From Trichoplax sp. H2 (Eukaryota): a stretch of DNA of 48,800 nt. The notes beneath the pieces were generated by a model. It had not been told where the DNA came from. It saw only the letters and a program-made list of their open reading frames with translations, and ran no database searches. The first letter of the stretch is position 1. Every line of letters starts with the position of its first letter. The position numbers and the translations under genes are program-made. This document shows, piece by piece, positions 5,742-48,800 of this stretch. The stretch is from NCBI GenBank assembly GCA_003344405.1, contig NOWV01000166.1, positions 124,001 through 172,800 on the forward strand, read 5' to 3'.

Positions 5742-7619
5742 GGTGGGTTAGCTAGGAATATTTCTCTGGATAATCCTCAGTTTTTGAGGAGGTCAGCAGT
5801 CAGCACTTACTCAGAAACTCCGAAGCTTGCTTTCTTTTGTACACCCAGTTACAGAACATCTGAACATGATATGGTATCATCGCACTGCCGTCCATCTGTC
5901 CGCAGCTTAACTAATTACTGTAATTAATTCCTGACGATAATTATAGAATTAATTAAGCTATGGACAGATGGACTAACGTAATACAGTACAGTGGGCGGTC
6001 ACTGAAGGTTGCACCTCCCCCATTTTCTTATTAGAAGTCTCTGCTACAGTCAGCGACTCCTCCACCAAAAAGTTAAATTAAGTAATATTGAAATCTATTC
6101 TATTTTACTAATTTCTACTGGATAGCAGTTATATAAGGTTCTAAATGTTTTTAAATTAGTAGAAGTAATTGAGAAAAATAGACTCTGGAGATCCGTTAGT
6201 CTATACTGTATGTGATATCAGTACCAAAGATCTGGTGTTGTGTTTTAACTGTAGTGTCCATTTACAGGCTTGCTTACAAGTAGCAAGTCCAGCACAGTAT
6301 GTAGCTTGATCATGCAAATTATCGTAGTGAGTTTATAAATGTATTGATTTTCCTTTATTTTTTAAGAACATTTATGTCATCAAGCTATACTTTGCTTTCT
6401 TTTAATAAACAGAGGTATAAAACAGCACTGGTACGCGTCTGATGTCCATTGTACAGTACTGTATGTTGCTGGTTTATTCTGCAAGGCAAATTAGGGCTTA
6501 CTGTTCACGATTTCTTGAGGAGTTTTTCAAATTGTCAATGCTTATGATAATACGGATAGAAATGTCAATAATTTGTTCGTGTTTTATCTCCTTCTTTTTC
6601 TCTGTCCGGGCTGTAGTCAAGAAGACTACAATATCAAGTGAAGAATCAACCAATTTCCAGTTCTAGAGAGTCGATATAGCGTAGTTGCCGTAGTTTGAAT
6701 CTCACGCTATACGGTAATAATTCACTATCATCCATCTCGTCAAGATATTGGATTTATAGAAGACAATCCCTCGACTTTACTCCTCTATCACACCCCAATT
6801 CTCCTTGCCATGGCGGAGAGCCATGGCATTCAAGCTCCAATTTGATTCACTGCATCGTAGATACGGAAGCAAAGAAATTTTCAATCAATCAACTCATCCA
6901 TAAAAGTAAATCATCCATCTTCCAGTTAATGCAGTTGGCCATCAAGAAATGATATACTGTACTACCAAATTGAGCTAGACTTACGTCTACTCTATTTCCA
7001 TCCTCATTGTCCATGGCTATCCATTGATTCATACAATTGTTATTTCTATCAATTATATCTATCATTTCTTCATACAATTGTTATTTTTATCAATCATATC
7101 TAGTCTTGATTAACCCATCGATTGTTTGAAAGAGTCAGTCATCAATTGCTGACTGACACGTCAGCAATCATCCAGTGGTGACAACAATAGTAGTGACAAC
7201 GTGAAATACTGACGGTACAAGGTGCGAACGTGACCCGGCATACAATGCAGTCGACAGTCAGGGAAGTTTGAGTTTGTTCCCTAGAGTGAACGTTGGGGCT
7301 GATGTGGACGATGGCAATCGATTTGTCTTGCCAATTGCATTGTGACGATTATCTCATACAGTAATTAGTATGCAACAATCAGTCACTTCAACGTTACTAC
7401 CCTACCGCTTGACCTAGAGTACAGTCCATTAATTAAGCCAATACTATATATACAGTATAATATATAGTGACTCAACGCTTGACCAAGTTAACCAATCGTC
7501 TCCATCGCTCAAAGCAGGTTGTCGGATCATCAAGAGTTCACATTATTATTATTAAATTGCAAGTTGGAAGTACCTTGTGATTGGAAACATTCCAAAGTAG
7601 TACAAGTGGAATATAAAGA

Positions 7620-9449
7620 ATGGAATATCGATCAAGTATCAAGAGATTAGTTGTACTTTTCTGCTTTGTATGTTTGATTGCATACGGAAATGGCGACAAC
7701 GAGCATGAAAAGATTAAGGTTAAAACCCACCACGATGAACCGGAAGAGAAGCATTACTTAAAAGATGGACAACATAATCCTGATTATGATGCAGAAATGT
7801 TTCTTGGTCGTGATCGTGCTACATTGTTTAAAGAATTACCAGAAAAAGAAGTTCAAGAACGATTGCGATCGCTCTTGCATCAAGTAGATACCGATCACGA
7901 TAAAATTATTAGTGAAAGAGAAATGGAACAATGGTTAAGAAAGATTGATAATGATCGATTGGCGAATGATGCCAAAGTAGTCTTTGAAGAGATGGATGAT
8001 GATAAGAGTAAATCGATCGATTTTAAAGAAATATCCAAGCATACTTTTGGTGATACCGTCGATGAAGATATTGCTAAAAGTGAAGAATTCAGTAAATATG
8101 TTGATAGGGAAAGGAGAAAATTTGCCTTAGCTGACATTGATAATAGTGAAAGTCTATCCTTTGATGAATTTGTTACATACCAACATCCTGAACGACATCA
8201 GCATTTATCAGACGTTAGTACGGATAAAAATAATCATTCCAATCTTAATGTAGGCTAACAATTTGCTAAAGATGCAAGAACTTGTCTTAGTAGGAGTGTC
8301 GTAATGATGAATTATTTTTCACTCCTATTTGTCACGTTGTACTCAATTGGTTTAAAATGCCTCTTGAAAAGACAATAGATATGTACTACTGTAAATAGTA
8401 GCATTGCGTACAATACATACACTATAGTGCAGTGAATGATAGTATATTAGTAGAATTTAAAACTATAACTATGCCAAAGCATGGATATAGACATTGCCAT
8501 GGATTGTAAAAATGAGAAAAGTCTCTGTTGAATGGTCACAGATCTACAGTAGCTAATTACGGATGACAAGTAACGCCATCCTAGAACGAAAAGTCTCTGT
8601 TGAATGGTCATACATCTACAGTAGCTAATTACGGATAACAAGTAACGCCATCCTAGAACAGTACATCCTGAGTAGAAATGAAACGCTTTGAGGACGATAC
8701 ACAAATTTTATACCTACTGTATTTATTATATCTGAATTAGTTTTCTATTACTAAAATTGCTCTCTCAATTGAACACAGGTGGTTGTCACCGATGTTCTTA
8801 ACGAGATAGATAAAAACAATGACGGCTATGTGGAATTCTCCGAAATGATTGGTAAGCACTATATTACTTTCGGAATGAAAATAAATATTAGTATTGAAAC
8901 TATTAAAATCAATAGGCGTATAATATTGGATGTTTTTGTATATAGATATAGATATACCGTACAATATATTAAACACTAGAAATGTCTTACGCTGTACTAT
9001 AGATATTTTGCCAATATCGTATCATAATGCTGTTGATACAGCATTCAATTTTCCTTTGTAAATCAAGAAGTCTACTGCAGTAGTATTATGTAAAGTTCTT
9101 AACTCAGAGTTGTTTCCTTGATAGTCATGATTACTATTATAATTATTCTATATCAGGTGATAGTGGCAATTCTGATGGTAAAGAAGATGACTGGATTAAG
9201 AATGAGAAAAAAGAGTTTGCTAAATATGATAAAGATGGTGATCAAAAATTGAGTACATCTGAATTAAAGGAATGGGTGATACCAGATAGGAAATATATTG
9301 ATGAAGAAGTTCAGCATCTATTAGAAGGAGCTGACACTGATCATGATGGTAGACTGACTATACGGGAAGCTTTAGCTCATCAAAACCTTTTAGCTGGTAG
9401 TAAATTAACTGATTATGGCAACTTGAATATTCTTCGCGAAGAGCTGTAA
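7620..9449 (+). CDS. CREC-family multi-EF-hand ER calcium-binding protein (calumenin/reticulocalbin-like); exons 7620-8213, 8779-8851, 9157-9449
   Basis: Hydrophobic signal peptide, HNPDYDAEMFLG, six EF-hand loops (DTDHDKIISERE, DDDKSKSIDFKE, DIDNSESLSFDE, DKNNDGYVEFSE, DKDGDQKLSTSE, DTDHDGRLTIRE), C-terminal GSKLTDYG and KDEL-like REEL. Confidence 0.9.
8516..8659. repeat. Tandem duplication, 2 x 72 bp, in intron 1 of the CREC gene
   Basis: gaaaagtctctgttgaatggtca...aagtaacgccatcctagaac occurs twice head-to-tail with few mismatches. Confidence 0.9.
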
Positions 9450-32901: not shown

Positions 32902-35900
32902 ATGAGTAAAGAGCCGTATAATTATCCTTTTATTCACGATGTTGGCAAGTACGAAAAAATTACCAAGATTGGCCACGGAACATTCGGGTAATAGATAAAT
33001 GACACAACCTTGATACTTTCTTACGGTGCTGCTAACACTAATTAAAAGGTTACTTTATACATGAAATGAAAAAAAAAAAAAAATCCACAATAAAAGGATC
33101 TACAGTACAATAAAAATATCAACGATTCGCAGGGGCCTACAAGTCAATATACGCATATTTTCCAGTTGATCTTTTCCATGTATGTGTACCTAAAAATGAT
33201 AACATTTCAACTACCATGCAATCCATTTCTTCACTGCTTGTATGTGCTGCTTACACCTTGTTATGGTAGTTTTGATGACGAAGGTAACCAAAAAAAAAAA
33301 ATGGAGAAAATGTTGATACATTCGTAGGTTAGCAGTAACTGATGGTACTATACGCATCAGTGAGATACATACTCTACTTGTATGCATCTAGGTCTAATAG
33401 AAAATAATCCTAGCTGTAGTGTAGACCACTCTAATTAGAAAGCTCTGCTAATGCATATCAATGCCAAGATTGATTCCACTGTACAATGGACATACGCGTT
33501 GAACCCTACTCTCGGCGATGTCATATTCTATCAAAAGTGTTGAATGCTCGATACTATAACTGTAGTCGACAATGTGCTCGTCTAAAATAACCAAAATCCA
33601 ATGGAAATGGGTGTAGAGACCTTCAATCAGAAGCATTATTCATGGCACTGCTTTAAAACTATACGCTACTTTTGCAAGAAGGCCAAAGTTGTAAAGGAGC
33701 TTGTTAAGCACGGCTTACATGCAAGTACTATCAAGCACAAGCCAATCACTAATAATAACTGATCACGACCGATTGCTGTTTTACCGTTCTGTAGAGCTAA
33801 TATCGACTTCTCCCTTGTACTGCACATTATTCGTACAGTAGATTAGTAAGCTTCAAGCACCATAACCTTTTTAAGCTAGACTGGTAGAAAATAATTCCTT
33901 TTATATACAGGATGAGTATACTGGATTGTGGAATGATATAGTAGTAATGGTTGAAATGATGACTGTAAGACTTGAATAAAGTGAACCTCATGAAACTTTT
34001 AATAAACCTCCTGAGATAATAAAATAGCAATCAATAAAACGCTATACTTTGGCCATAGATGCCCGGTAGCGTACACAATCGAATATTTGTCAATTTATGC
34101 TATATGCTGAGTACTATCTTTCTTGTGCAAGCTCAACACTTCAGTGTATGATAAGAATTGTATACAAGTCGGCTTCTTCAATTCCCATTTGAATCAGAGT
34201 AAACGACCAAGACATGAAACACATAAAACCTTCGAATGTAGTACAGTATATTGCTTCATGGAATAGAGTTGTTGTGTTATATAACTATAGTAGTAAAAGT
34301 GCCGTCGATTTTAGAAATGAACATTTTCGACATTCGCTCTTGGTGTATACAATAGAATATGAATTGATCAGTTTCGCGAAATTGGAAATGATACCTATCA
34401 AATGTTAAAATTTTTGATATAAATGTCAAAGTATGTAAGCTATCGACTTAATAAGAGCTCCAGCTATAGTAATGCTGTACTGGTTTCATATCTTCCGAAA
34501 TAGCGAAGTATTCAAAGCTAGGAATCGCATCAGCAAAGAGTTTGTGGCGCTTAAACGTGTCTTGCTAGGCAATGAAAAAGAAGGGGTAACTGTCTTGATA
34601 GATAAAATTGATTAGTATACATACCATAATTATGAAAGGATAAATTACATGTAAATAGTATATTGGATTGCTTGATAATAATTACGATATGTAAATTTAC
34701 TGGTAATTCAAGCGTACATCATACAAATGATTTATATGCTTATTTCACCATATATTTTTAGTCAATACTGTACGTTCTACTGTGCTATTCATGTCGTAAA
34801 CCATGTGTAACTAGATGAGTACGTATAGTTCTTTGGGTTGTAATCGTAGTCCGCGCTGTAATTAATGTTCAGAGTGTAGAATTGCTTAAATTGTATTCGA
34901 TAGGGATCATCATTTTTCTTTTATAGCCCTACTTGAAAAGTAAATTACTTTAGCAAAGCAATGTTTGCAGTATTATCCATTATCACTGTTCTACTGGATA
35001 TGTAATTACAGTATAGCTATGATTAAAAATACGTAGATACCAGAGTAGTTACTTTACTTACAAATATATGGTGTAGAAATGAAAGAGACTAGGATGTAAT
35101 TACTGTAGCTTTCTATACAGTGGCATATTACGTTAAAAGATTGCAATGATACTATACGTGTATATTTAATGCTTACCTTTTTTCATTGTATCAATATTTC
35201 ATCTGGTAGTTTCCTATCACATCGCTCAGAGAAATTAAAATTTTAAGAGCTCTCAAGCATGACAATATTGTGCGTCTACAGGAAATTTGCCGATCCAAAG
35301 GTTAGTCTAATTTAAAAGATATTGTGTGTGTATAGAAAAATATTATCATAAACTAAGTAACCGTAAAGCGACAAAATTGCTAATCACTGTGAGGTCGTAA
35401 TGATCTATTAAAATCATGATGGAATGATGCAAGGACAAGATTCAACGGAAATTGTATTATTCAGTATTAAATGTAAAGATTTATACAGTGTATGAGTTAC
35501 TTTGACTTAAAATCGAATAATATTCAAATTATTATCGTCACTTCATTAATATTCATATGTCTATATTTAAATTAATTGTATCAAACCTATCTTGCTATTA
35601 TAATGATAGGTACCCCGCAAAGTCGTAAAAGAGGCAGTATCTATCTAGTTTTTGAATTCTGTGCTCATGATCTTGCCGGCCTATTACAAAATCCACAAGT
35701 TAAATTCAACCTCTCGGAAATTAAGCGCATGATGAAACATTTATTAAGTGGATTATTTTATATACATAGCAATAAGGTCTTGCATAGAGATTTGAAGGCG
35801 GCTAATGTTTTAGTAACTCGTGATGGCGTCTTAAAACTAGCCGATTTCGGTTTAGCGCGTGTTTATAGTCGTAAAGAAAAGACTCACTGCTTTACTAATC

Positions 35901-36439
35901 GTGTTGTTACACTATGGTATCGAGCACCGGAGTTACTACTTGGCTGTCGTGATTACGGACCGGCCATTGATATGTGGGCAATTGGTTGTATTATGGCTGA
36001 ATTTTGGACTCGTAGTGCTATCATGCAAGGGAATAGTGAAACTAATCAGTTGACGTTAATCACTCAATTGTGTGGCTCAATTACTCCTGAAGTCTACCCA
36101 GATGTGGATAAATTAGATTTGTTTAAAAAATTTGATTTACCAGCTAGCCAAAAGCGCCGTGTCAAAGAACGTCTATCTCATTATGTCCGTGACCGTCATG
36201 CCTTAGATTTAATTGATCGTTGCTTAACGATCGATCCTGCTAAGCGAATCGATAGTGACTCCGCCTTAAATCATGACTTTTTCTGGTCTGATCCTTTACC
36301 TGCCTCTAAAATTAGCTGTTTAAGCCGCTTGAATGTATCAATGTTCGAATTTCTAATTGATCGCAAAACAACTAATCCACAGCATCGACCGGAGCCGAGT
36401 CAAATGTCTCAACAACCTGGATACGACCGTGTCTTTTAA
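32902..36439 (+). CDS. CDK9: Cyclin-dependent kinase 9; exons 32902-32987, 34504-34585, 35210-35300, 35610-36439
   Basis: KYEKITKIGHGTFG|EVFKAR...VALKRVLLGNEKEG|FPITSLREIKIL, GSIYLVFEFCAHDLAGLL, HRDLKAANVL, LADFGLAR, TNRVVTLWYR, IMQGNSE, RRVKERL, DSDSALNHDFFWSDP, C-terminal YDRVF; these are CDK9-specific segments. Confidence 0.95.
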
Positions 36440-37797
36440 ATGTTGTAGATAAAACCTATGTTAATATAGTGAGAGTAATAGATATTATAACAAAAAAATT
36501 GAGTTCAACTGATTTGCTGTTGCTAAATGTCGTACAGCGGTATCGCATTTATACTAAATTTCTACTAAATTTTGTATCATAGTCACGAAAGGAAAACTAG
36601 CGTCATAACGGTCTCGCTGTATAGTTATTTTATGATTTTTTAAAGAAAATAATTGTTAACGATTACTTCAATAATCCTATTGTATGTATAAAGGATTTCA
36701 AATTTTTTGTTGCCATAATTCCTTTATTTTTGGCAAATTAATATTATTAAGAATGACTAAAATTACGAATTAATAGATCTTCATAGATCTGGCTTCTGCG
36801 AGAACATTGTCATCTTATTTGATAGTAATGTTCGATAGAGGATTGATTGCAACACTTATATCGACAGTACACATACGTACGCGTATTTATAGAGATATGT
36901 ATAAAAGGCGTTTAAAGGATAATATGTATACGGCCTTCATATACTTCATTGGTATTTTGTCTTGATAATAAAACTGGTTCACTATATTGTAGTATTTTGA
37001 CGTGTTTGGATGGTTACTTACTTACTCATTATAATTGCATAATTAGTTTAGTCATGGATTTCACGGTCGATTTACATTATCTGAAGATTAGCTTTACTTC
37101 TGATATATTTATGATGTTAAGACTTTGTTACCAAATACTTTCCATTTCGTCTGTTCATCAGTGTTTTGCACATGCAAATTGATGTGACAGTACTCTTTAC
37201 GGTACCTAAACATATATGTTTGTCTATTCACTCCTGTTACAGTTACAATTTTGGTCAATATACCTTAATTGCTGACTTGATAAGCAAGGAGTTTACGATG
37301 AAAACTAAATTGGATACCATCAATAAAAAGGAAAACTTCCATTGTATCATGTTTGCAATTTTATTACCTGTTGCAGCTTATATTGACATATTGTAGCATT
37401 TCCAAAGAGTCTTATTGTAGTAGCGAAAAGTACTTAAAAAAAATTTTGAATGCACACCTCTTGCTAATATTGCTTTAATAGCTCTATAGAATATGAATTG
37501 AAAGCCTGAAGCAGTAACGTGACATGTTGCCAACGCATGTTTACGGTTACCATTTATCGAATTTTGTACATTATAGCTTTTAAAGCAAATATTGTAGAGT
37601 GTTAAGCGATATCGATCGAAGACTTTGGTGATTTGATAAGATTAACTCAACCCTAACCCCAACCCTAACTTTACGTTTGCCAGCCTTAATTACTAAGAAT
37701 TATAGATATGTAAATTTTGTACTGGATGAGATGTAAATAACAATGAGAATCAATTGGTGTATGAACAATCCAATCAGCTGGACTGTATACTACGATA

Positions 37798-39907
37798 CTA
37801 AACAGCATCCATCAATTCCATCATTTGATTAGTCCCGCAGATTTTTCGTCTGAGGTATGATTCTTCAGTTTCAAGACTGCCATGGACTTGATGCCATTCG
37901 AAATACGGTATCTAATAATGTAGAAATAATACGTGCAGTACAATAAGTCATCATATACTCTTATACGACACAAAAATATCAAGATATCAAACATAATCAA
38001 TGTGTTACCGATATAATTTGCCATCCCAAAGCTTTCAACAAACGATGTTTGAGTAATGTGTCACCTAATGGTCTTCGTGTCTTATATGCAAAATGATGGG
38101 AGCCATCAACCTCCACAGCTACTTTACGTAGTGGATTCCTTTAGTAGCATAATTAAACATTAGCAACACTGGCTTTCTTTGAAACGACTTTATCAGGAAA
38201 ACTAAATCCGTAACAATCTTTTTAAATATATTTGGTCATAAAGTGTAAGTATCATTACCGCTTAGTATCAAGGACAGCAAAGATGTCCTCATTTAGACGG
38301 ATACTATCAAAATCACGCCATAATAGAGCCCGATTTCTGTCATCCAAAACAAACGCCATATCGAGGCTGTACCCACATTCTAAAGATATTTCAGAACCAA
38401 AGTATTGTTTACCACCAAAAATTCTTTCCATAGCCTGCTGAACCTCAATCTCTATCGTCGATGTTATCCGCTGTAAATTGGCCAAAGTTTTAATAATTTG
38501 ATTTCGTAGTGGTAATGGCAAAGAAAACTCGGAAGAGCCATCTCCGTATTCCAGTTTGACTGCTAAGTCTATTTGGCATAACTGCACCTTATCTACACGG
38601 CTTAGTCCGGAATTCGATTGACATTCTAGCGTTTGTAGATGATCATGATTAAAATATATATATATATATGTGTATTGTACATTTATTAATAAAAATACTA
38701 ATTAAGGTGTACGAATATACTATCTTTATAGCTAGCAATTGTGCAATGACTGTATTATATCATACTCTGAGTAAATGAACTTACTTTGTAAGAAGGTTGG
38801 ATCGAATACCTTAGCAAAGAGGGGACGATGATACCGTTGCAAGATCACCATAGACCATGCAATGTTTAATAAAAACTTTGGATTATAGTTATCATATGAC
38901 CGGTTTAATAGATTTTCTATGGCAGAAAAGAATTCTTTACTATTGGACGGTTTAAAATTAACTTTTGCAAAGGAGTATAATACTTGCGCAACATCATATT
39001 GACCATACTGTTGATGATTATTCACAAAGTGCTGGCCAACGGCCTCAAATAACTCGCGATTATAAATGAGGTGTTTAGCAAATGCCCAAGCTATGACTCC
39101 AACAGTATATGGTGACCAATTTGAAAGCTTTAAGATTGAAATTGCTGCTATGTCGAATATTAATTCCATGTTAAAGACTCTACATTTAGTGAGCATCAAT
39201 ACTAGATTACGAATGCTGATATCGTCAAGATGATTAAGATTACGACAGGCATGATCAATCAAGGCTGACAGTAGTGGTTTATGTTTAGTTTTATTTTTAG
39301 CTACGCCATGATAGAGAGGAATTATATCTTGTAGATTAATATCCTTTATATTTCGAGCTAATCTTTGCTCTAATTTATTTAGAAATTGAAATTTACTACC
39401 GCGTTCAGCAAACAATTGAAATAGCTTAGTCATAGTCGATAAATCATCAATACTATCTAATTCTCGTTCAGTTCTTTTGGCTAATGCTTTAGTAAATCTG
39501 CTCCGAATAGGAACATGAGGAGAGGAAGAAATATGCACCAAGTTTAACCAAAGTTGTTTATCCATATTGTGCAATCGACGGCAACATTCATCCTCCACGT
39601 TAATTTGGAACCACTTTCGAAGTGTTAGCGGCTTGAAAGATCTGGATGTCCATGAAGTGGAATGCGTAATAGCCATAATCTTGACTAGTTCTTGATCATT
39701 TAATTCGTGTATATCTTGCTGTGAGTATTGATTTGCATTGCATAACTCCTGTTTGATAGCAGTCGGACTGTTTAATTGATCAACAATACCAAATAAAAAA
39801 TTGCTACATCTGCGATAACTTGATAGGGGTAAATACGTGAAAGTTAAAGTATCTCTGGAGAGTGCTACCATGTTCACCACTTTACGGTAAACTTTATGCA
39901 TAGCCAT
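37798..39907 (-). CDS. FASTKD-like helical-repeat + RAP-domain protein, paralog 1; exons 39907-38785, 38625-38259, ~38138-38009, ~37911-37798
   Basis: Basic N-terminus, 37-aa repeats (WSPYTVGVIAWAFAKH, YGQYDVAQVLYSFAKVNF), LNIAWSMVILQRY, QIDLAVKLE, GYSLD, RAP motif KVAVEVDGSHHF...LGDTLLKHRLLKALGWQIIS|IPYFEW. Confidence 0.88.
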
Positions 39908-41208
39908 TCTTGCCTATAATCGTCTTATTAATCAATTGGAGATCAGGTAGCATTTCATTTTTTTCCTTGATCATTAATTCTCAAGTTGAGTTGGAAATTG
40001 AAAAAATACCATGGTATCATTGTCGAGAATGAATGTTAAGATAAAGCGAGCACTTGGTTGAAGCTAACACCTATTTTGGATTTGCCAAAGTGTATGGAAG
40101 AAGTATGCTATAGCTCAATTGGCTTCCAAATGCGTGTCCTTGTTGCAACAATCTCGCCAATAAATTTAATTTGATTACCGTAGCGTAGTTCGTCCTGGCG
40201 AGGCTAATCTCCACGTCCTTGAATTCTGTTGTGCAATCCGATTGAAATCGATGAGCTTCTAGCTCGACTCTACCAGTACTTGTGAATTTGCAATGATGAT
40301 TACCAGCTGTGTAAGCTGATTATTGACCTCTACTGTGATCTTTCAGTCTTACTTAATGGCTAAATCGAAGGCTAAACTGCTTAATCAACCAATTGCGGCA
40401 ATCAAGTAAACGTGCAATCAGCTATAGCCAGCAATGATCTCGTGAGACTGGACTATTGCCTTGTTCATTGTAGTGGTACCCATACCATCCTTTATAATAC
40501 ACAGTCTACTATAACACCGTCTTTCGTAAGCCTGCAATACCCTGTTGCACGATACTTCTGCATGGTGGCTAGACCACCTGGTACTATATGCTACACTAAG
40601 CTAATTTGAAATGCACAAATCTGACTGCTGTGGCTCGGATCCTTTACAGTTGTCTAATCATATTATTTATTAAGTTAAAGGTTGAGTGGATTGTAGATGC
40701 CGAGCTGCCTCGATAGTTTATCCTTACTCTTAATTCAGGAATAATGTTGTTGCATTAGCCAACAGTAAAGTCCTATGCCCTAGTTGGAGCGAGATAGAAG
40801 CATTTCAAAGTACAGTAGAGAGAGAGGATATTTCTGCTAGCGTTGGTTTTGGTGAGCGATTGTGGAATCGCGATCGCTCGCTTGCAAGCGAGCAAGTTCA
40901 ATTCGTTATTGATGGAGAATTATTTAATGGCTACCAGATAGCGACCTCTTATAGCACCTGTATAACCTTACACTGTGTGACAACTTGTTGCAATTTGAAT
41001 ATAGGGATATCATCACTGCAGAATTCAAGATCCTCAAGTACTTTTATCGAGCAACTTGCTGTGTATCTCCTATCGATCCATTGCTAATTTCAGTTTTGCA
41101 ATCGACTACCAGTAGTTGAAAGTGGCAACAATCATTTTGGCTATCGGATTATTATAGTAAAAATAGTGTGTTGGGCGTGTAAATGTTGCATCACAAACTG
41201 TAATCAAC

Positions 41209-43707
41209 ATGCTGTCTAGTCGTTTACTACTGCTGTTGTTGGCAAGACGAGGAATATCTGCTGTTACAAATACTGCCAAATATAGAAGTACCATTGCAAG
41301 TTATGATAGCACTATGCGCTGCTTAACTAGTGTCAATAAATATGAATTTTTACTAAAGTTTTACCCTCGCACACTTACAACAGATCTATTCCAGGATAGC
41401 CAATTGCACGATGAATTACAACGATTAACAAATTGTGCATCTATTTTACAATTTATTAAACGAAATAAACAATTCTACGATCCTGCTACAATAGTACTAT
41501 CATTCTCCAAACTTCGTCACAACATGGATAACTCCTATTCACTTTATAATCAAAAGGATTTCCAAAATTTATGTCAATTAACTTGTCAGAAATTAACTTT
41601 ATTAAATGACGATGAATTTATTTCTCTATCATCATCCTTAGCAGGTTTTATCAATAAGAATCGATTTATTACCGATAAGAGTGTGATGCGATTATTTATT
41701 GATATCCATACAAATGCGGCCCAACGATATCCATCTTTTAATAACAGCCAACTCTCTCATATGGCATGGTGTCTTATACAGTATTCCACGATACCTAAAT
41801 TAAATAATAAACTCTATTTAAATCAGCTAGCAGCAGCGGTGGAAAAAAGAGTCACAAGCTTTAATAATCCAGTTCATATCGCTAAATTAATGTGGGCATT
41901 ATCAAAAGATCAATTAAACATAGACATTTTTCAACAGTTACAACAACAAGCAATCAATAACATTAATAAATTTAATCCAATCAGTATATCCATGGTATGT
42001 TATTCGCTGGCTTTATTCGGGGATAGATCGGAACAACTGTTGACGGCAATTGAAAATAGAATGCTAGCAATAATTAATTTATTAGATCCACGAAGTATCG
42101 CAAACATTGCTTGGGCTTTCGCAAAGTTAAACTGGTTCAATGATGAAATCTTTGGATTCATTCAAAAACGTACATTAGACAATATTGGCAAGAGAACGTT
42201 ACGACCACAGTCAATTTCTAACATCATTTGGGCCTTTGCAAGCATGAATTATGATGATCAGCAATTATTTACTGCTGGTTGTTTGCATTTCTTACATAAT
42301 CATCAGCATTATAATATAGACGACCTATGTCAGTTAATTTATTCACTGGGGAAGATGAATTTTAAACTGGAATTACCAGCCAGTAAAAAATTCTTCCCAA
42401 TCGTTATTCAACGATTAGAAGATCTGATGAAGCGACAAAATCGCTACACTCCTAAATTTTATAAGCAAGTTATTAGTGCAACTTGGTCACTGATAATAAT
42501 GGAACAATTTCCACCTCGATTAATATCTAAAATTCTCTCCGATCAATTTATAGAAGGTAAAGATATTATAAAATAGGCATTTATCGCTATTGCATATGTC
42601 TGCTATTATGAAATTTTTCAAAAATTGTCGCCATATGTAACTAAATCATTAATGGAATAATACTAGCATGCAGTCCTCTACTTTTATCATAAATCAATAA
42701 TATCATAGGTGATACAGTATACATTACAGTAATAACAATGTTGATGATTTTAAGGTTGATATAATAATATTTAATTGAGTCTACTTCGTTTGCTAGATGC
42801 AACTCCATATATTTCACAAATAGAAGCAACTCAGTTATATCAAATAGATTTAGCCACAATATTAGAATCAGGCGATTCAAGCATCCAATGTTTATCGCCT
42901 GTAAATAAAAGGAAATTTGTTCAAGCGTTTTGTGCCGTTACTACCTCATTGTCGTCATTGGAACAAAATGTTGTGCCTGCCATTCACCAATTTGTAGGTG
43001 GAGATAGATATTACAGGTTACAAGTTGCAACGCCATTTGGATATAGCATCGATATTGAGCTACTATTAGACAAGGATAAAAATCTAATGCCTATCAATGA
43101 GATTCTTCCTGCAGCGACATCAACAGGCGATAACATCGAGATGAAGATAACCAACCTGATAACAAAAGTAGTCACGGAATCCATGTTAGTATATGCGAAT
43201 GATATAAGTATTGTAGATTACTGCATCAGTTTTCGCATTCTTCCGATTCTGCAAAAAGATACTGCAAAAGGAGTCATTGAACTAGTTTCGTTACTGATGT
43301 TATACCGATATTCTTACTTAGATAAACTGTCATTATACTACATCAATAAAAAAGTAACGAATCATTCTCTTATTCTCCTATATATACATTAATACTTGTA
43401 TACTGTATATACGAGTAGGACTCATCTTGACTATGAAAGAATTGCAATTGAAATCGATGGTCCAGTTCATTTTGCGTACAAATCCAATCGATATTTAGGT
43501 CATACCATTATGAAAACTAGACATTTGTCATTATTAGGCTGGCATGTTATAAGGGTGAGTTATAAGTAGTTTGTAATTTTCGATAATCGCATTGACAATT
43601 TAATCTCGAATTTTTTATTATTTCAGGTTCCGTACTATGAATGGAATAAATTAAATGATCTCCCTGAAATTGACCGATATCTGAAAGAGAAGTTATTTCA
43701 GCGGTGA
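41209..43707 (+). CDS. FASTKD-like helical-repeat + RAP-domain protein, paralog 2; exons 41209-42556, 42797-43167, 43419-43554, 43627-43707
   Basis: Presequence-like MLSSRLLLLLLARRGISA, repeats LDPRSIANIAWAFAKL and LRPQSISNIIWAFASM, QIDLATILE, GYSID, RIAIEIDGPVHF...LGHTIMKTRHLSLLGWHVIR|VPYYEW; TGA 43705-43707. Confidence 0.9.
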
Positions 43708-44307
43708 TCAAGAGATCTTATCTTACATGAACATTAATAAGTACGAATACTAATTGGAGATAGAGTTACTTCGATGGACTTCATGTACACTTGGATCGTC
43801 AATTAAATCAATATCTGTATATGCTGGCATACACCGTATGTCGCATTCATTTATAATGTGAATATGGTGTATTAATCATACTTAAGTGTTTATTCCGACA
43901 AAAATAAAACCATTGTTACAAAAATTCAAGATTTTTTAATATTGTCCATCAACTGCATTATACTGTATCTGATTTAATTTATATTGAATAGCATAGGATA
44001 ACAAGTCATAATACGTTTTAATAATTTTTTTTTTCAAATTTAGCATTAGTTTTTAAAAGTGCTAGTAATCAGAGCTCTACATACAAGCCAATAAAATTGC
44101 AATTTTAAGAGAACGTCAGCTCAACATGTTTCGTGACGTCAATCATAAGTATAGTGTAATTATATGTAGCGTAGCATATAGGGAGAACTATGCTCTGCAG
44201 AGTAATAACTAAATTCTGCTCAGAACAAGTTCGATATTTAAATGATGCACAAAGTTGCCTATAATAATCAATTTGTTCTGATTTTAAATAAACAGCAACC
44301 AATATGG

Positions 44308-46506
44308 CTAGTTCTCACGGTTAATGTTCATAGGACCATCGCCAAATATCTTCCGTTTCATATATTGCTTGCGTTCATCATCGGTGTTAAGTTCTTCCCA
44401 ATCAAAGTATGGTACCTACGCAAGTTTATTCATTCGATTTAAAATGGGAAAGGGCAATTAAGAACTATTATAAACATTAAAAATACCTGAACAACGGTCC
44501 AACCTAAAAGTCTCAATTGCCGATGCTTCATTTTAGATTCACCAATTAGTTTTGTTGAATTATGAAGAAAGTGATATGGCCCATCAACTTCAATAGCTAT
44601 CCTTTTGTAGTGGGTTGGCCTACGTAGATGTATAAGAGAAAATATAAACGCTAACATCCTAGCTAATAGGGTATCATTTTGTACAGGTGATATTTACTTA
44701 TTTTTGCTGCGAAGGACATTAACTTTCGGTTCCTGTAAAACGTTGTTCAAATCTGTCATAATTGCAAGATCAACACTATAACCATATGCAGTCTTGAATT
44801 CCTTCCAATAATAGTGCGATCCATCAAATAGGTATTCCAAAGTTCTTTGAACATTATGTTGAAAGACAGATCCTTTTGTAGAAAATTTTTTGAGTGGTTT
44901 CAGAAAGTGGTTTCTATGCGAATGGGATAAACCTTGTAATTGCAGTTCAGGTCTTTCCAGTTTAGCGGCTAAATCAATCTGAAACATTTGCACTTGGATA
45001 GCACCAGTACCAAAACTATGAATCTCTATAAATTACAGAAAAATAGCCACGACCATGATTAAAAAGATAATAGTAAAAAGGGAGCCATGGCGAAGTATTG
45101 CTATAAATATTATTATCTACGCGTACATTAAGGTTAACGATCGTATCCTACTAACCTGAAACAATTTTTTCATTGAACAATGCATTAATTGCTCGATGAG
45201 GAAAGGTATCCAAGATAATTAAAGACCAAATGGATGTAACAATGGGTGGAATAATCATATTAGGGGTAGACTTTATGTAATATTCGATTTTAGATATTAC
45301 TTTTCGTAATAATGCAGGTTCAGGTAAATGATTCCACCTAGCAAATACATATAAAATATCGCCAATAGATTGTATCGAGAATTCATAGAGTGCTCCTTTA
45401 TCGGTCAGGTGAAGTCCAATTGCATCAGCTAAATCTTTATTATAATATCGTAAGCTTGAAAGAGCACGAGCAATCTGGCTAACAGAATAAGTACTCATAT
45501 TATTGATATTTTTAATGACATAGTTTGAAATTTTTTCAAAGAGGTCTTCAACAACTAATGGGCGATAAGTAAACGACCTCATCAAAGACAGTACATGCTC
45601 TTCAGACAAGCCGTCTAAGTCTAGATGAGCGGCACGTTGTCCAAGCATTTCTCGAAGTTCTGGGCAGCGTCGATTTAATCGATGAAAAGCATTGCAAACA
45701 TCGCAGATTTGTTCAATAGAAAGTTCATTGAAGTGGTTGGCTATCCAGCTTTCAAGTTTACCAACAACTGATGATTTAATGCCATAGTGAGCAAAGACAG
45801 TAAAACTACGCATCAACAATTGCACATCCTTTCCTTCATGAATAATAGGTATTAGCATATTTACAAGTTGCTCATTGATCACTTTTAGTTTTAATCTTGA
45901 TCCTATTTTTAATTCAAGAATAACTAATAAATCCAAAATAGTTAAGGATTCAATACGACGCTCTAGCGTCAGTATAATGTGATTTGATAACTGTCCCAAT
46001 TGAGCACTGAGTGTGTCGCCTATAAGAGATTGAATTTTTAGAGCACATTTTAACAATTGCAATAATTCATCTGTATTGAAATGACCAGCCTTTCGTTTCG
46101 CAAAATCACATAATAAATTAAATTTAGGATTATTTGGTAGCGCGGTAACAATTCTCAAACTGGATGTACGGCTTGCATTAGCATAAATTTGATCCAATGA
46201 AGCAATTACATCACTACAACCATATCGATACTGATATTTAAAAAACAGATTTAAAACACTAATGACTGTTTTACATTTCTTGATATCTTCGAAGGGAGCT
46301 AATGAATTTGGTTTGGTATTCGTATCGTTGTTGTCAGCCTCTTTGAGTAAGGTGTTAGCATAATAACGTTGCCATTTCAATAAATGCCCTTGCAATCTTG
46401 GATTGTTATCATAATTATAGATGCTGCTCAAGTTGAAGGTGATTTTAGGTAAGCTATTATATGAATATCTGGCGATGCGCCCAATTATTCGTTGTAACTG
46501 ATTCAT
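44308..46506 (-). CDS. FASTKD-like helical-repeat + RAP-domain protein, paralog 3; exons 46506-45156, 45025-44698, 44619-44487, 44415-44308
   Basis: Arg-rich N-terminus, helical repeats, SIWSLIILDTFP, QIDLAAKLE, GYSVD, RIAIEVDGPYHF...IGESKMKHRQLRLLGWTVVQ|VPYFDW. Confidence 0.9.
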
Positions 46507-47329
46507 ATTTTAATTTGAAACTGGGATTGTACCATTAGATTAATAAGGTGCAAAAGTGGGTACTATCGTCAGGTCAAGTAGAGAATTGCAAAAGGCAACA
46601 ATCACTAATGTTAATGCTTAATCAAGCACAGTACCTTGAGTGTACAAGTGATCCTTGTGATGTGATGGCCATGTTCTTGATGAATCGGTGTTTACCAGTA
46701 TTTGCAGATGAATGATTGATGACTATGATTGGTTAGAGCTTGAATATAGTACCTTCCAATTCAGCCAATGGATTTCAATCAATACAAGAGTATACAGGTT
46801 TTTGGATGATTATTATTTACTTGCCTCTTGCACGCTACCTTTGCCAACTTTCAACTTATAGGCACCATTCACTCACCATTCAATCTAGTCTTGGTCTCCA
46901 CTGTAGCAAAGGCCCAATGAATAGCAAATGGCAATAAACTCGCTTACAGCTACTACCAATATTACGTAACTAAGAGTAATGGTTGCTGTACCTTTGAATC
47001 ATCAATAAATCGACAAGAAAGGATGCTGTTGACTCCGTAGCAAGTGGAGGTCTGGCCAGGTTTGCACTTGTGTCAATTGGATGTCTGCTAGGATGGCAAG
47101 TTTTCCTTGTGCCAACGGCCTAAAACGTATTATTTTACCATTCAAAGAGCTCTTTCCACCTTGAGCTACCTCGGAGAGAGTGTGGCCGCAATAAGCAGAA
47201 CGTCGATTAATGAATTTGGAGCTAAACCAAAAGAAGTTTGGATGTACACTCCATTTGCATGTAAAAGATGAAAGAAGATTGTGGGAATGCAGTGCGGCAA
47301 TTTGTCATCGTCTGCCAGGTCGAGCGGTG

Positions 47330-48600
47330 CGAAACGGTACGGTACAGTATAGTAGTACAAACCGGTCCAGCCTCGATGTCTCCATACAGTAGTACTGTAC
47401 TGGATGTCCCTCATTGAGCATCATCCAGTGCAGTACTGTACTGTACAGTGTACAGACATCGGGCCCGAGATGGACTAAGCGTACCGTATCGTACCGTGCC
47501 GTGGTGACAGTCACTGGTCACTGTCTACAGTGTCTAGTGTCCAGTCTACAGTACAGTATTTTGGAACACGTGTGATTTCAGGCTCTACAGTACAGTACAG
47601 TGTACTGTACAGTAGAAGAAGTTTACAGTATACTGTACAGTACTGTAAACCACAGGACAATGTTTGCAGTGGTTGTACTGTGGCCAGTAGGCCCAGCCAT
47701 AATAACCCCCATTACTTAGATATTCAGCGTAAATAGCTTCAACGATGAACCATCATTCTAATAAGAGTCAACAGTACTACACATGGTCGCGTATTCAATG
47801 AGAATGTGGCATGTGGCTGGACAGTGGTCAGATGTCAGCAACTGCCCAAATAGGGTACAGTACTGTACAGTACTTGTATTGTACAGCGTACTGTACATTG
47901 TACACTGTACACTGTACTGTGAGCAGAAATGAATCATTCAACAAGTGTGTGCTGCCTGCTTTGAGTACTGTATGCCAAGCGTAAATTACAAATTCTGGGG
48001 CGTGATACAGTAAATTGGATATTCCAATTTTGCATCAATTTGTACCAAATAGATGTACCAAATTGATCGCAAATCTACGTGTCGTGCTACTAGTACGACC
48101 AGTAGACTAGGACTACAAGCACCACTAGTAGACTACTTACTAGTACCACCAGTAGAACCACCAGTAGACTACTTACTGTACTGTACTGTACTAGTACAGT
48201 GTACCACCAGTAGACTACAGTAGTACTCCTAGTACCAAGTACTGTAGACTAGTACTACTTGTACAGTACTGTACTGTACTGTACAGTACAGTACCACCAG
48301 TCTACAGTACAGTACTACAGTACTACAGTACAGTATTATACTGTACTGTACGGTTGGCAATTTCAACGCATCTTTTTATCGACTTGGAAATTTGGACAGT
48401 ACACTGTACTGTACGACTACTGTACTCAGTACTGTACAACCAAAGTGATGAAATCGGCAGCTCCGACCCTACAGTACTGTACCGTACCTTACAGTGATAT
48501 GTACTGTAGTCAACGGACTTTCAACTGTAGCTTGGGTCCACAACAGATACACGACATACAGTACAGTACAGTACACTACTGTCTACACTACTGTATGTGA
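47330..48600. repeat. ACAGT/TACTG microsatellite-rich tract with a tagtaccaccagtagactac minisatellite (~48090-48260)
   Basis: Long runs of cagta/ctgta pentamers in both orientations; spurious ORFs rich in YSTV/TVQY. Confidence 0.9.
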
Positions 48601-48800
48601 CATGCCAACTCAACCCTAGTATTGCCACTGTAGCCCCCTTTCGCCGACGGTAAGTAAACCTGCGACTCGCTTGGACTGCGATTGAAATCGCCATCTTGCT
48701 TCCATATTTCATCTTATCTTTCCTGGTTTACAATCAACTAGCGAAAGAACATGGTACGAATTGAACCTGTGAAATGCTTCCATGCTATCAAGTTTGAACC

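Follow-up and report, generated by a model that had tools for sequence, protein, structure and literature searches.

The 48,800-nucleotide window of Trichoplax sp. H2 analysed here (contig NOWV01000166.1, positions 124,001 to 172,800 of the forward strand) contains, at positions 37798-46506, three neighbouring nuclear genes which are canonical members of the FASTK family. We refer to these as genes A (minus strand), B (plus strand) and C (minus strand), in the order in which they stand; their spliced models, assembled by script, encode proteins of 577, 650 and 639 amino acids. Animal FASTK proteins are described as mitochondrial RNA regulators in a 2017 review (PMC5737537). Taken as a whole, the explanation that we find best and regard as likely is that A, B and C are tandem-duplicated FASTK-family genes of Trichoplax whose products are mitochondrial, bind transcripts and probably cut RNA.

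Domain matches of all three proteins lie far beyond chance and every one of them exceeds the curated Pfam cut-off. For FAST_1 (PF06743, cut-off 27.4 bits) the scores of A, B and C are 77.7, 58.6 and 53.1 bits, and for FAST_2 (PF08368, cut-off 26.9 bits) they are 44.1, 72.5 and 75.0 bits. RAP (PF08373, cut-off 24.2 bits) scores 43.6 bits on exon 3 of gene A alone, and 74.9 and 80.0 bits on the whole proteins B and C (expect values, E, of 5e-21 and 1.3e-22). FAST_1, FAST_2 and finally RAP stand in this order on one spliced polypeptide in each case, and it is by these three domains that the canonical FASTK family is defined (PMC5737537). Weak matches to MTES_1575 and DUF559 on exon 3 stay below the Pfam cut-offs. 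The original prediction, made from the sequence without database searches, had read the genes as helical-repeat plus RAP proteins of the FASTK kind and had named profile hidden Markov model searches for RAP, FAST_1 and FAST_2 as a way of checking this; both the domain matches and the fold described below agree with that reading.

The fold was analysed for gene C, whose whole protein was modelled with AlphaFold2 from 61 aligned sequences (predicted local distance difference test score 88.3, predicted template modelling score 0.81). Residues 1-68 of the model are of low confidence or disordered, residues 71-517 form helices and residues 523-628 form an alpha/beta domain. The top match among solved structures is human FASTKD4 (TBRG4, 9gek), with a Foldseek E of 3.7e-11 and, in VIA-align, a Z of 27.2 and a root-mean-square deviation of 2.8 Å over 297 residues. 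Ranking behind it are RAP or helical-repeat proteins from the mitochondria of Toxoplasma, Trypanosoma, Tetrahymena, Chlamydomonas and Polytomella. Vsr, a small bacterial DNA-mismatch nuclease that lacks helical repeats, is itself absent among the listed matches of the whole-protein structural searches with this model. The organellar RAP proteins of protists, such as the apicomplexan RAP/HPR proteins, the Chlamydomonas OPR-RAP proteins (Raa3, for example) and trypanosome RESC6, are likewise built of helical repeats with a RAP domain at the C-terminal end; RESC6 and Toxoplasma mitoribosomal RAP proteins are among the structural matches.

By simple counts, the first 30 residues of A, B and C hold 4-5 basic and 0-1 acidic residues, together with an amphipathic helix. 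This composition fits a presequence-like N-terminus, as had been predicted, and together with the homology to animal FASTK proteins it makes all three candidates for a mitochondrial location.

The motifs GYS[LIV]D, E[VI]DGxxHF, K.R.L..LGW and PY[FY][ED]W, which had been noticed at the outset, are present in A, B and C. Five positions within these motifs, namely the Asp in GYSxD, both acidic residues (Glu and Asp) in ExDG, the His in HF and the Lys in MKxR, were tallied in an alignment of 59 rows. The set consists of D463, E506, D508, H512 and K527 in gene A, of D535, E590, D592, H596 and K611 in gene B, and of D536, E570, D572, H576 and K591 in gene C. It is complete in eight of the nine rows on the basal side of the tree described below, A, B and C among them, and in none of the 50 derived animal rows (0/22 in clade I, 0/11 in the FASTKD4 clade, 0/11 in clade III and 0/6 in clade IV). 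ExDGxxH, within a core reading xIAIExDGPxHF, is found in 19 of the 20 rows picked as an outgroup; the twentieth (P0058) reads like clade I and was excluded from the tree. Because the set has been kept in three copies which are only 23-27% identical overall, a working active site, or selection on the site, is suggested in A, B and C.

The RAP fold and an active-site Asp/His pair are common to this family and Vsr according to the superposition given in the FASTKD4 paper. That paper equates D523 and N570 of FASTKD4 with the Vsr active-site pair D51/H69, and the FASTKD4-clade row P0105 repeats the 47-residue spacing from D to N. On the strength of this mapping, the Asp of GYSxD and the His of HF in the Trichoplax proteins would occupy the catalytic positions of Vsr. 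FASTKD4 itself shares the FAST_1-FAST_2-RAP module with A, B and C, and its structure is matched by the Trichoplax profile at E 5.9e-37. However, where Trichoplax reads RIAIE[VI]DGPxHF, rows of the FASTKD4 clade read RLAFLRWEFPNF, so that the E, D and H have gone, as has the K further along.

Each of the three genes has four exons, and all nine introns are of the GT-AG type, with phases 1, 2 and 0 at homologous places. Pairwise identity of the proteins is 27.4% for A/B, 23.2% for A/C and 23.3% for B/C. The predicted layout of three genes (-,+,-) with the same four exons and phases but low overall similarity is thereby borne out by the spliced models, by six of nine junctions in RNA and by these identities. 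Because exon layout and intron phases are shared, an old tandem duplication at the DNA level is the probable origin of the cluster. By BLAST, A, B and C score 179, 154 and 152 bits against one another, more than any of them reaches with a non-placozoan row (148 bits at best). A separate ortholog of each gene is found in a more distant placozoan-like source, with exon 1 identities of 60% (P0033 to A), 66% (P0002 to B) and 56% (P0023 to C), and since each gene has its own ortholog there, all three should predate the split from that lineage. P0002 and P0023 come from the same kind of source, each with 5889 bases as its longest contig, and the B-C neighbourhood may be conserved in the distant placozoan. 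A fourth copy or a pseudogene was not found within the window by tblastn.

For comparison, a profile made from the Trichoplax proteins and one pig protein was run against 1.84 billion representative proteins. At E <= 0.001 it gave 7222 hits, and the best 150 of them were used. Word-indexed searches were insensitive: the C-terminal part of B matched just one pig protein and one other protein, and the exon-1 profile of A and C matched placozoan proteins alone. Sixty rows span the whole C-terminal module, to which all trees refer, and after the fragment P0117 had been dropped the first tree was built from 59 rows and 282 columns (LG+C20). It splits the rows 9 to 50 with a support of 95/85. The basal side holds A, B, C, P0040, P0044, P0134, P0080, P0056 and P0082, and the other side consists of four well-supported derived animal clades (I, 22 rows; II, 11 rows; III, 11 rows; IV, 6 rows). 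Clade II is FASTKD4, as P0094 matches 9gek at E 2.9e-102, and the pig protein falls in clade I. For clades III and IV the names are leads only, as are the near-tied atlas look-ups for P0076 (FASTKD3, FASTKD4 or FASTKD2 at 0.98) and P0079 (arthropod "FASTKD3-like" or "FASTKD5" at 0.97).

The second tree has 55 rows, including 19 outgroup rows which match only the RAP part of the C-terminal profile and have no FAST_2. A branch with a support of 100/98 divides 18 of these outgroup rows plus P0134 from the other 36 rows (35 ingroup rows and the long-branched outgroup row P0140). It is this branch that separates the FAST_2-bearing rows from the RAP-only rows; in contrast to the protist-type rows of the outgroup, the Trichoplax proteins have a strong FAST_2 match of about 44-75 bits.

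None of the Trichoplax genes joins any of clades I-IV in 1000 bootstrap trees of the first tree (15 pairings), nor does A, B, C or A+B pair with a derived clade in 1000 bootstrap trees of the second. A one-to-one orthology of any of the three genes with FASTKD4, or with another sampled derived clade, is rejected on these counts. The original prediction had stated that it would fail if each gene grouped with a different ordinary FASTKD subfamily, and for the sampled clades no such grouping was seen. The derived clades come together without Trichoplax in 946/1000 bootstrap trees of the first tree and 829/1000 of the second. A and B are sisters in 755/1000 and 901/1000, respectively, and this fits our reading that A and B arose by tandem duplication within the placozoan lineage.

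Among the rows nearest to the Trichoplax genes, P0134, P0040, P0044 and P0080 carry the full nuclease motif but have no FAST_2 match, or one that stays below cut-off; in addition, P0134 has DUF1601. It is possible that these four proteins are intermediates between the protist RAP proteins and the animal FASTK proteins.

In the explanation that we favour, each protein would be built of four parts. A mitochondrial presequence at the N-terminus would be followed by an all-helical repeat solenoid, then by the helical FAST_1-FAST_2 module and, at the C-terminus, by a RAP domain of the Vsr-like PD-(D/E)XK fold. An old tandem duplication would have given rise to the three genes, and each product would most likely be imported into mitochondria, as judged by homology with animal FASTK proteins. 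The solenoid may then bind a particular stretch of a mitochondrial transcript; this region has diverged strongly, exon 1 most of all, and the paralogs may have different targets. The RAP centre would subsequently cut or trim the bound RNA, for instance where a junction has no transfer RNA (tRNA) to mark it. Because the full ancestral catalytic set (D, ExD, H, K) is kept, we infer that A, B and C most likely cut RNA and do not merely hold it. The closest functional analogy to this mechanism is human FASTKD5, described as an endoribonuclease acting at non-canonical mitochondrial pre-mRNA junctions and, in the literature consulted, the only animal FASTK member with shown RNA cleavage. It has the same family architecture, and the likeness to A, B and C that is drawn here is one of architecture and of proposed function. 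RNA binding, separate targets and nuclease activity are all suggested by homology and motif retention. The original prediction had also spoken of a "system"; this was not upheld, as nothing shows A, B and C working together.

Several points weigh against the explanation that we favour. An intact motif is no proof of activity, and FASTKD4 has the fold yet, by the account of the FASTKD4 paper, is a mitochondrial RNA-binding protein with no nuclease activity. FASTKD5 differs in that it is reported to cut RNA without metal and to depend on D429. The basal grouping in the tree is partly held by the shared ancestral catalytic columns themselves, and the comparison set, being the best 150 of 7222 hits, is biased by the make-up of the profile. 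Since the FASTKD4 clade is the sole derived clade which is securely named, some vertebrate subfamilies are perhaps missing from the set. A clade of A+B+C appears in only 1/1000 bootstrap trees of the first tree and 200/1000 of the second, and C joins P0040 in 276/1000 of the first. The approximately unbiased test does not reject the A+B+C clade (p 0.111, log-likelihood difference 3.73). The old local expansion that had been predicted fits the sister paralogs A and B, and as a single clade of all three genes it is rare in the bootstrap trees but not rejected; gene C either belongs to this old expansion or is a paralog of greater age.

A stronger form of the proposal would make all three proteins active, metal-dependent endoribonucleases of the Vsr type, each directed by helical repeats of its own to a separate site in the large, intron-bearing mitochondrial transcriptome of placozoans, with placozoans keeping the ancestral catalytic state and the bilaterian subfamilies arising later and losing the classical active site. 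We consider this form possible but doubtful. If true, the Trichoplax proteins would be the simplest system in which to learn which FASTK proteins cut RNA, and how.

The main competing explanation, which we hold to be possible without being probable, is that A, B and C are non-catalytic RNA-binding adapters which stabilise mitochondrial mRNAs or aid polyadenylation like human FASTKD4 and FASTK, the RAP domain serving as an RNA-binding surface only. It draws on the fact that FASTKD4, whose fold is the same (Z 27.2), is reported to act by binding without nuclease activity, and on a 2025 review which calls catalytic membership within the FASTK family still uncertain. However, rows of the FASTKD4 clade have mostly replaced four of the five positions (E, the second D, H and K) and none of the 11 keeps the set, whereas A, B and C keep all five. 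ExDGxxH persists in 19 of the 20 outgroup picks, and retention of the whole set in the Trichoplax copies despite an identity of 23-27% argues for selection on the site and against a purely adapter role.

A role in the mitoribosome, either as assembly factors or as proteins binding its ribosomal RNA (rRNA), comparable to human FASTKD2 and to the protist mitoribosomal RAP/helical-repeat proteins, appears unlikely to us. RAP/helical-repeat subunits of the mitoribosomes of Toxoplasma, Tetrahymena, Chlamydomonas and Polytomella are high-ranking structural matches, and reviews (PMC5737537 is one) count ribosome assembly among FASTK functions. However, these matches reflect a shared fold, not a ribosomal role; the best match is FASTKD4 and nothing ties A, B and C to rRNA. 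Very unlikely, in our estimate, is a role in splicing or trans-splicing. The original prediction had brought in the introns and the split cox1 of placozoan mitochondrial DNAs; a link of the genes to these introns and to trans-splicing of cox1 is speculation. The placozoan mitochondrial genome is intron-rich, and such DNAs are indeed described as large, with a fragmented cox1 and trans-spliced introns (PMC5436844, PMC7813641), and Chlamydomonas Raa1 (FAST_1) and Raa3 (RAP) are said to function in chloroplast trans-splicing, that of psaA (PMC5737537). The FASTK literature examined, however, reports no animal FASTK protein acting in splicing. FASTK genes number two in Drosophila and six in vertebrates by the count of the same review; because the three copies of Trichoplax are no more than other animals have, the gene count does not track the odd placozoan mitochondrial DNA.

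The three genes have already been catalogued. The 2017 review (PMC5737537) gives three FASTK homologs for Trichoplax adhaerens, counted from InterPro, though its three are perhaps not exactly these three records because the T. adhaerens model of gene A is without RAP. In our literature search on Trichoplax and FASTK, neither the tandem arrangement nor the shared introns nor the state of the nuclease motif was found described in print. What is added here is the tandem origin, the result that no gene is a one-to-one ortholog of a sampled derived clade, and the ancestral nuclease set in its complete form. The genes being ordinary, the finding changes little; these added points have a modest, comparative value for specialists. 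The tandem arrangement and the shared intron phases record the first growth of the family in animals. According to the 2025 review it is still debated which FASTK proteins are true nucleases, and because the full set is kept in the placozoan copies and lost in each sampled derived clade, these copies are a sensible choice for testing that ancestral activity biochemically.

Splice sites were read off the sequence before the models were assembled. Gene A (577 amino acids) runs on the minus strand through exons 39907..38785, 38625..38259, 38138..38009 and 37911..37798. Its exon 1 starts with the ATG at 39907 and holds the presequence-like N-terminus, helical repeats and FAST_1 (E 6.3e-22), with a GTAAGT donor after 38785. 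Exon 2 has a phase-1 acceptor and a phase-2 donor (GTAATG) and carries FAST_2 (E 3.1e-11) as well as the nuclease-like domain's first half (GYSLD, with D463). The RAP core (EVDGSHHF, K527, R529, LGW) lies in exon 3, where RAP matches at E 2.9e-11, and exon 4 encodes the end of RAP (IPYFEW) and the stop codon, which at 37798-37800 bounds the locus on one side.

Gene B (650 amino acids, plus strand) has exons 41209..42556, 42797..43184, 43419..43554 and 43627..43707. A presequence-like N-terminus, helical repeats and FAST_1 (E 5.9e-16) are again found in exon 1, which ends at a phase-1 GTAAAG donor and is 99% identical to TRIADDRAFT_53222. Exon 2 carries FAST_2 (E 4.2e-20) and GYSID (D535), and the model reproduces P0001 across both of its junctions. 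The RAP core in exon 3 (EIDGPVHF, K611, R613) matches RAP at E 5.5e-15 on the exon alone; exon 4 has VPYYEW and the stop codon. For gene C (639 amino acids, minus strand) the exons are 46506..45156, 45025..44698, 44619..44487 and 44415..44308. The start codon, which ends at 46506, closes the locus on the other side and opens an exon 1 that is 100% identical to P0021, with presequence-like N-terminus, helical repeats and FAST_1 (E 2.9e-14). FAST_2 (E 6.7e-21) and GYSVD (D536) follow in exon 2, the RAP core (EVDGPYHF, K591, R593) in exon 3 (E 1.2e-13 for the frame that contains it), and VPYFDW with the stop codon in exon 4.

The model of gene C equals letter for letter the Trichoplax sp. H2 protein P0021, which bears the NCBI name "FAST kinase domain-containing protein 3, mitochondrial" (FASTKD3). 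Gene B corresponds to TRIADDRAFT_53222 of T. adhaerens (P0001) with 99.1% identity over the full length. Gene A corresponds to TRIADDRAFT_53221 (P0022), being 98.8% identical over the 497 residues of that record. This T. adhaerens model of gene A ends with exon 2 and is without the last two, RAP-encoding exons; the window sequence and the RNA junction 37911|38009 support a gene A protein of 577 amino acids which includes RAP.

Contigs of three RNA libraries (X10, X13 and X14) and of one DNA-like run (X1) were mapped on the locus. Six of the nine predicted junctions occur exactly in RNA contigs, namely introns 1 and 3 of gene A (38625|38785 in X10 and X13; 37911|38009 in X10; minus strand), intron 3 of gene B (43554|43627 in X13; plus strand) and all three introns of gene C (45025|45156 in X10, X13 and X14; 44619|44698 in X10 and X13; 44415|44487 in X10, X13 and X14; minus strand). 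For intron 2 of gene A, an 8-letter loose end at 38139 fits a junction to 38259, and introns 1 and 2 of gene B are outside the RNA contig coverage. X1 spans the whole stretch and shows none of the predicted junctions, as expected of DNA. Because the RNA contigs carry the predicted junctions, we conclude that A, B and C are transcribed and that their splicing follows the models.

Between genes A and B, at 39761-40405, contig depth reaches 14-53 in X10, X13 and X14, as against 0-9 over the body of gene A. No ATG frame of at least 30 amino acids, Rfam family or tRNA was found in this interval, which may belong to gene A as a long 5' leader or be a non-coding transcript of its own. Further along, a contig present in all four runs, X1 included, runs from 41133 backwards to 40998, a single extra letter lying at the join. 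No repeat was found at 40998-41133, and the interval between A and B is without tandem or notable repeats. The join may be an artefact of the contigs, or it may reflect a structural difference between the window assembly and the animals that were sequenced.

The surroundings of the cluster are an ordinary nuclear gene neighbourhood. For neighbouring frames at 594-974, 7617-8258, 9084-9449 and 35576-36439, the matches are to a ubiquitin C-terminal hydrolase with an E of 6.5e-13, to EF-hand proteins with E values of about 1e-9 to 1e-10, and to a protein kinase domain with an E of 4.3e-48. No Rfam family was found in 36500-48800 and no tRNA in the whole window. Just past gene C, at 47000-47750, the G+C content rises to 0.45 and the frames of both strands repeat brief peptide words (TVQYS and YSTV, for example), suggestive of a short repeat, either tandem or interspersed.

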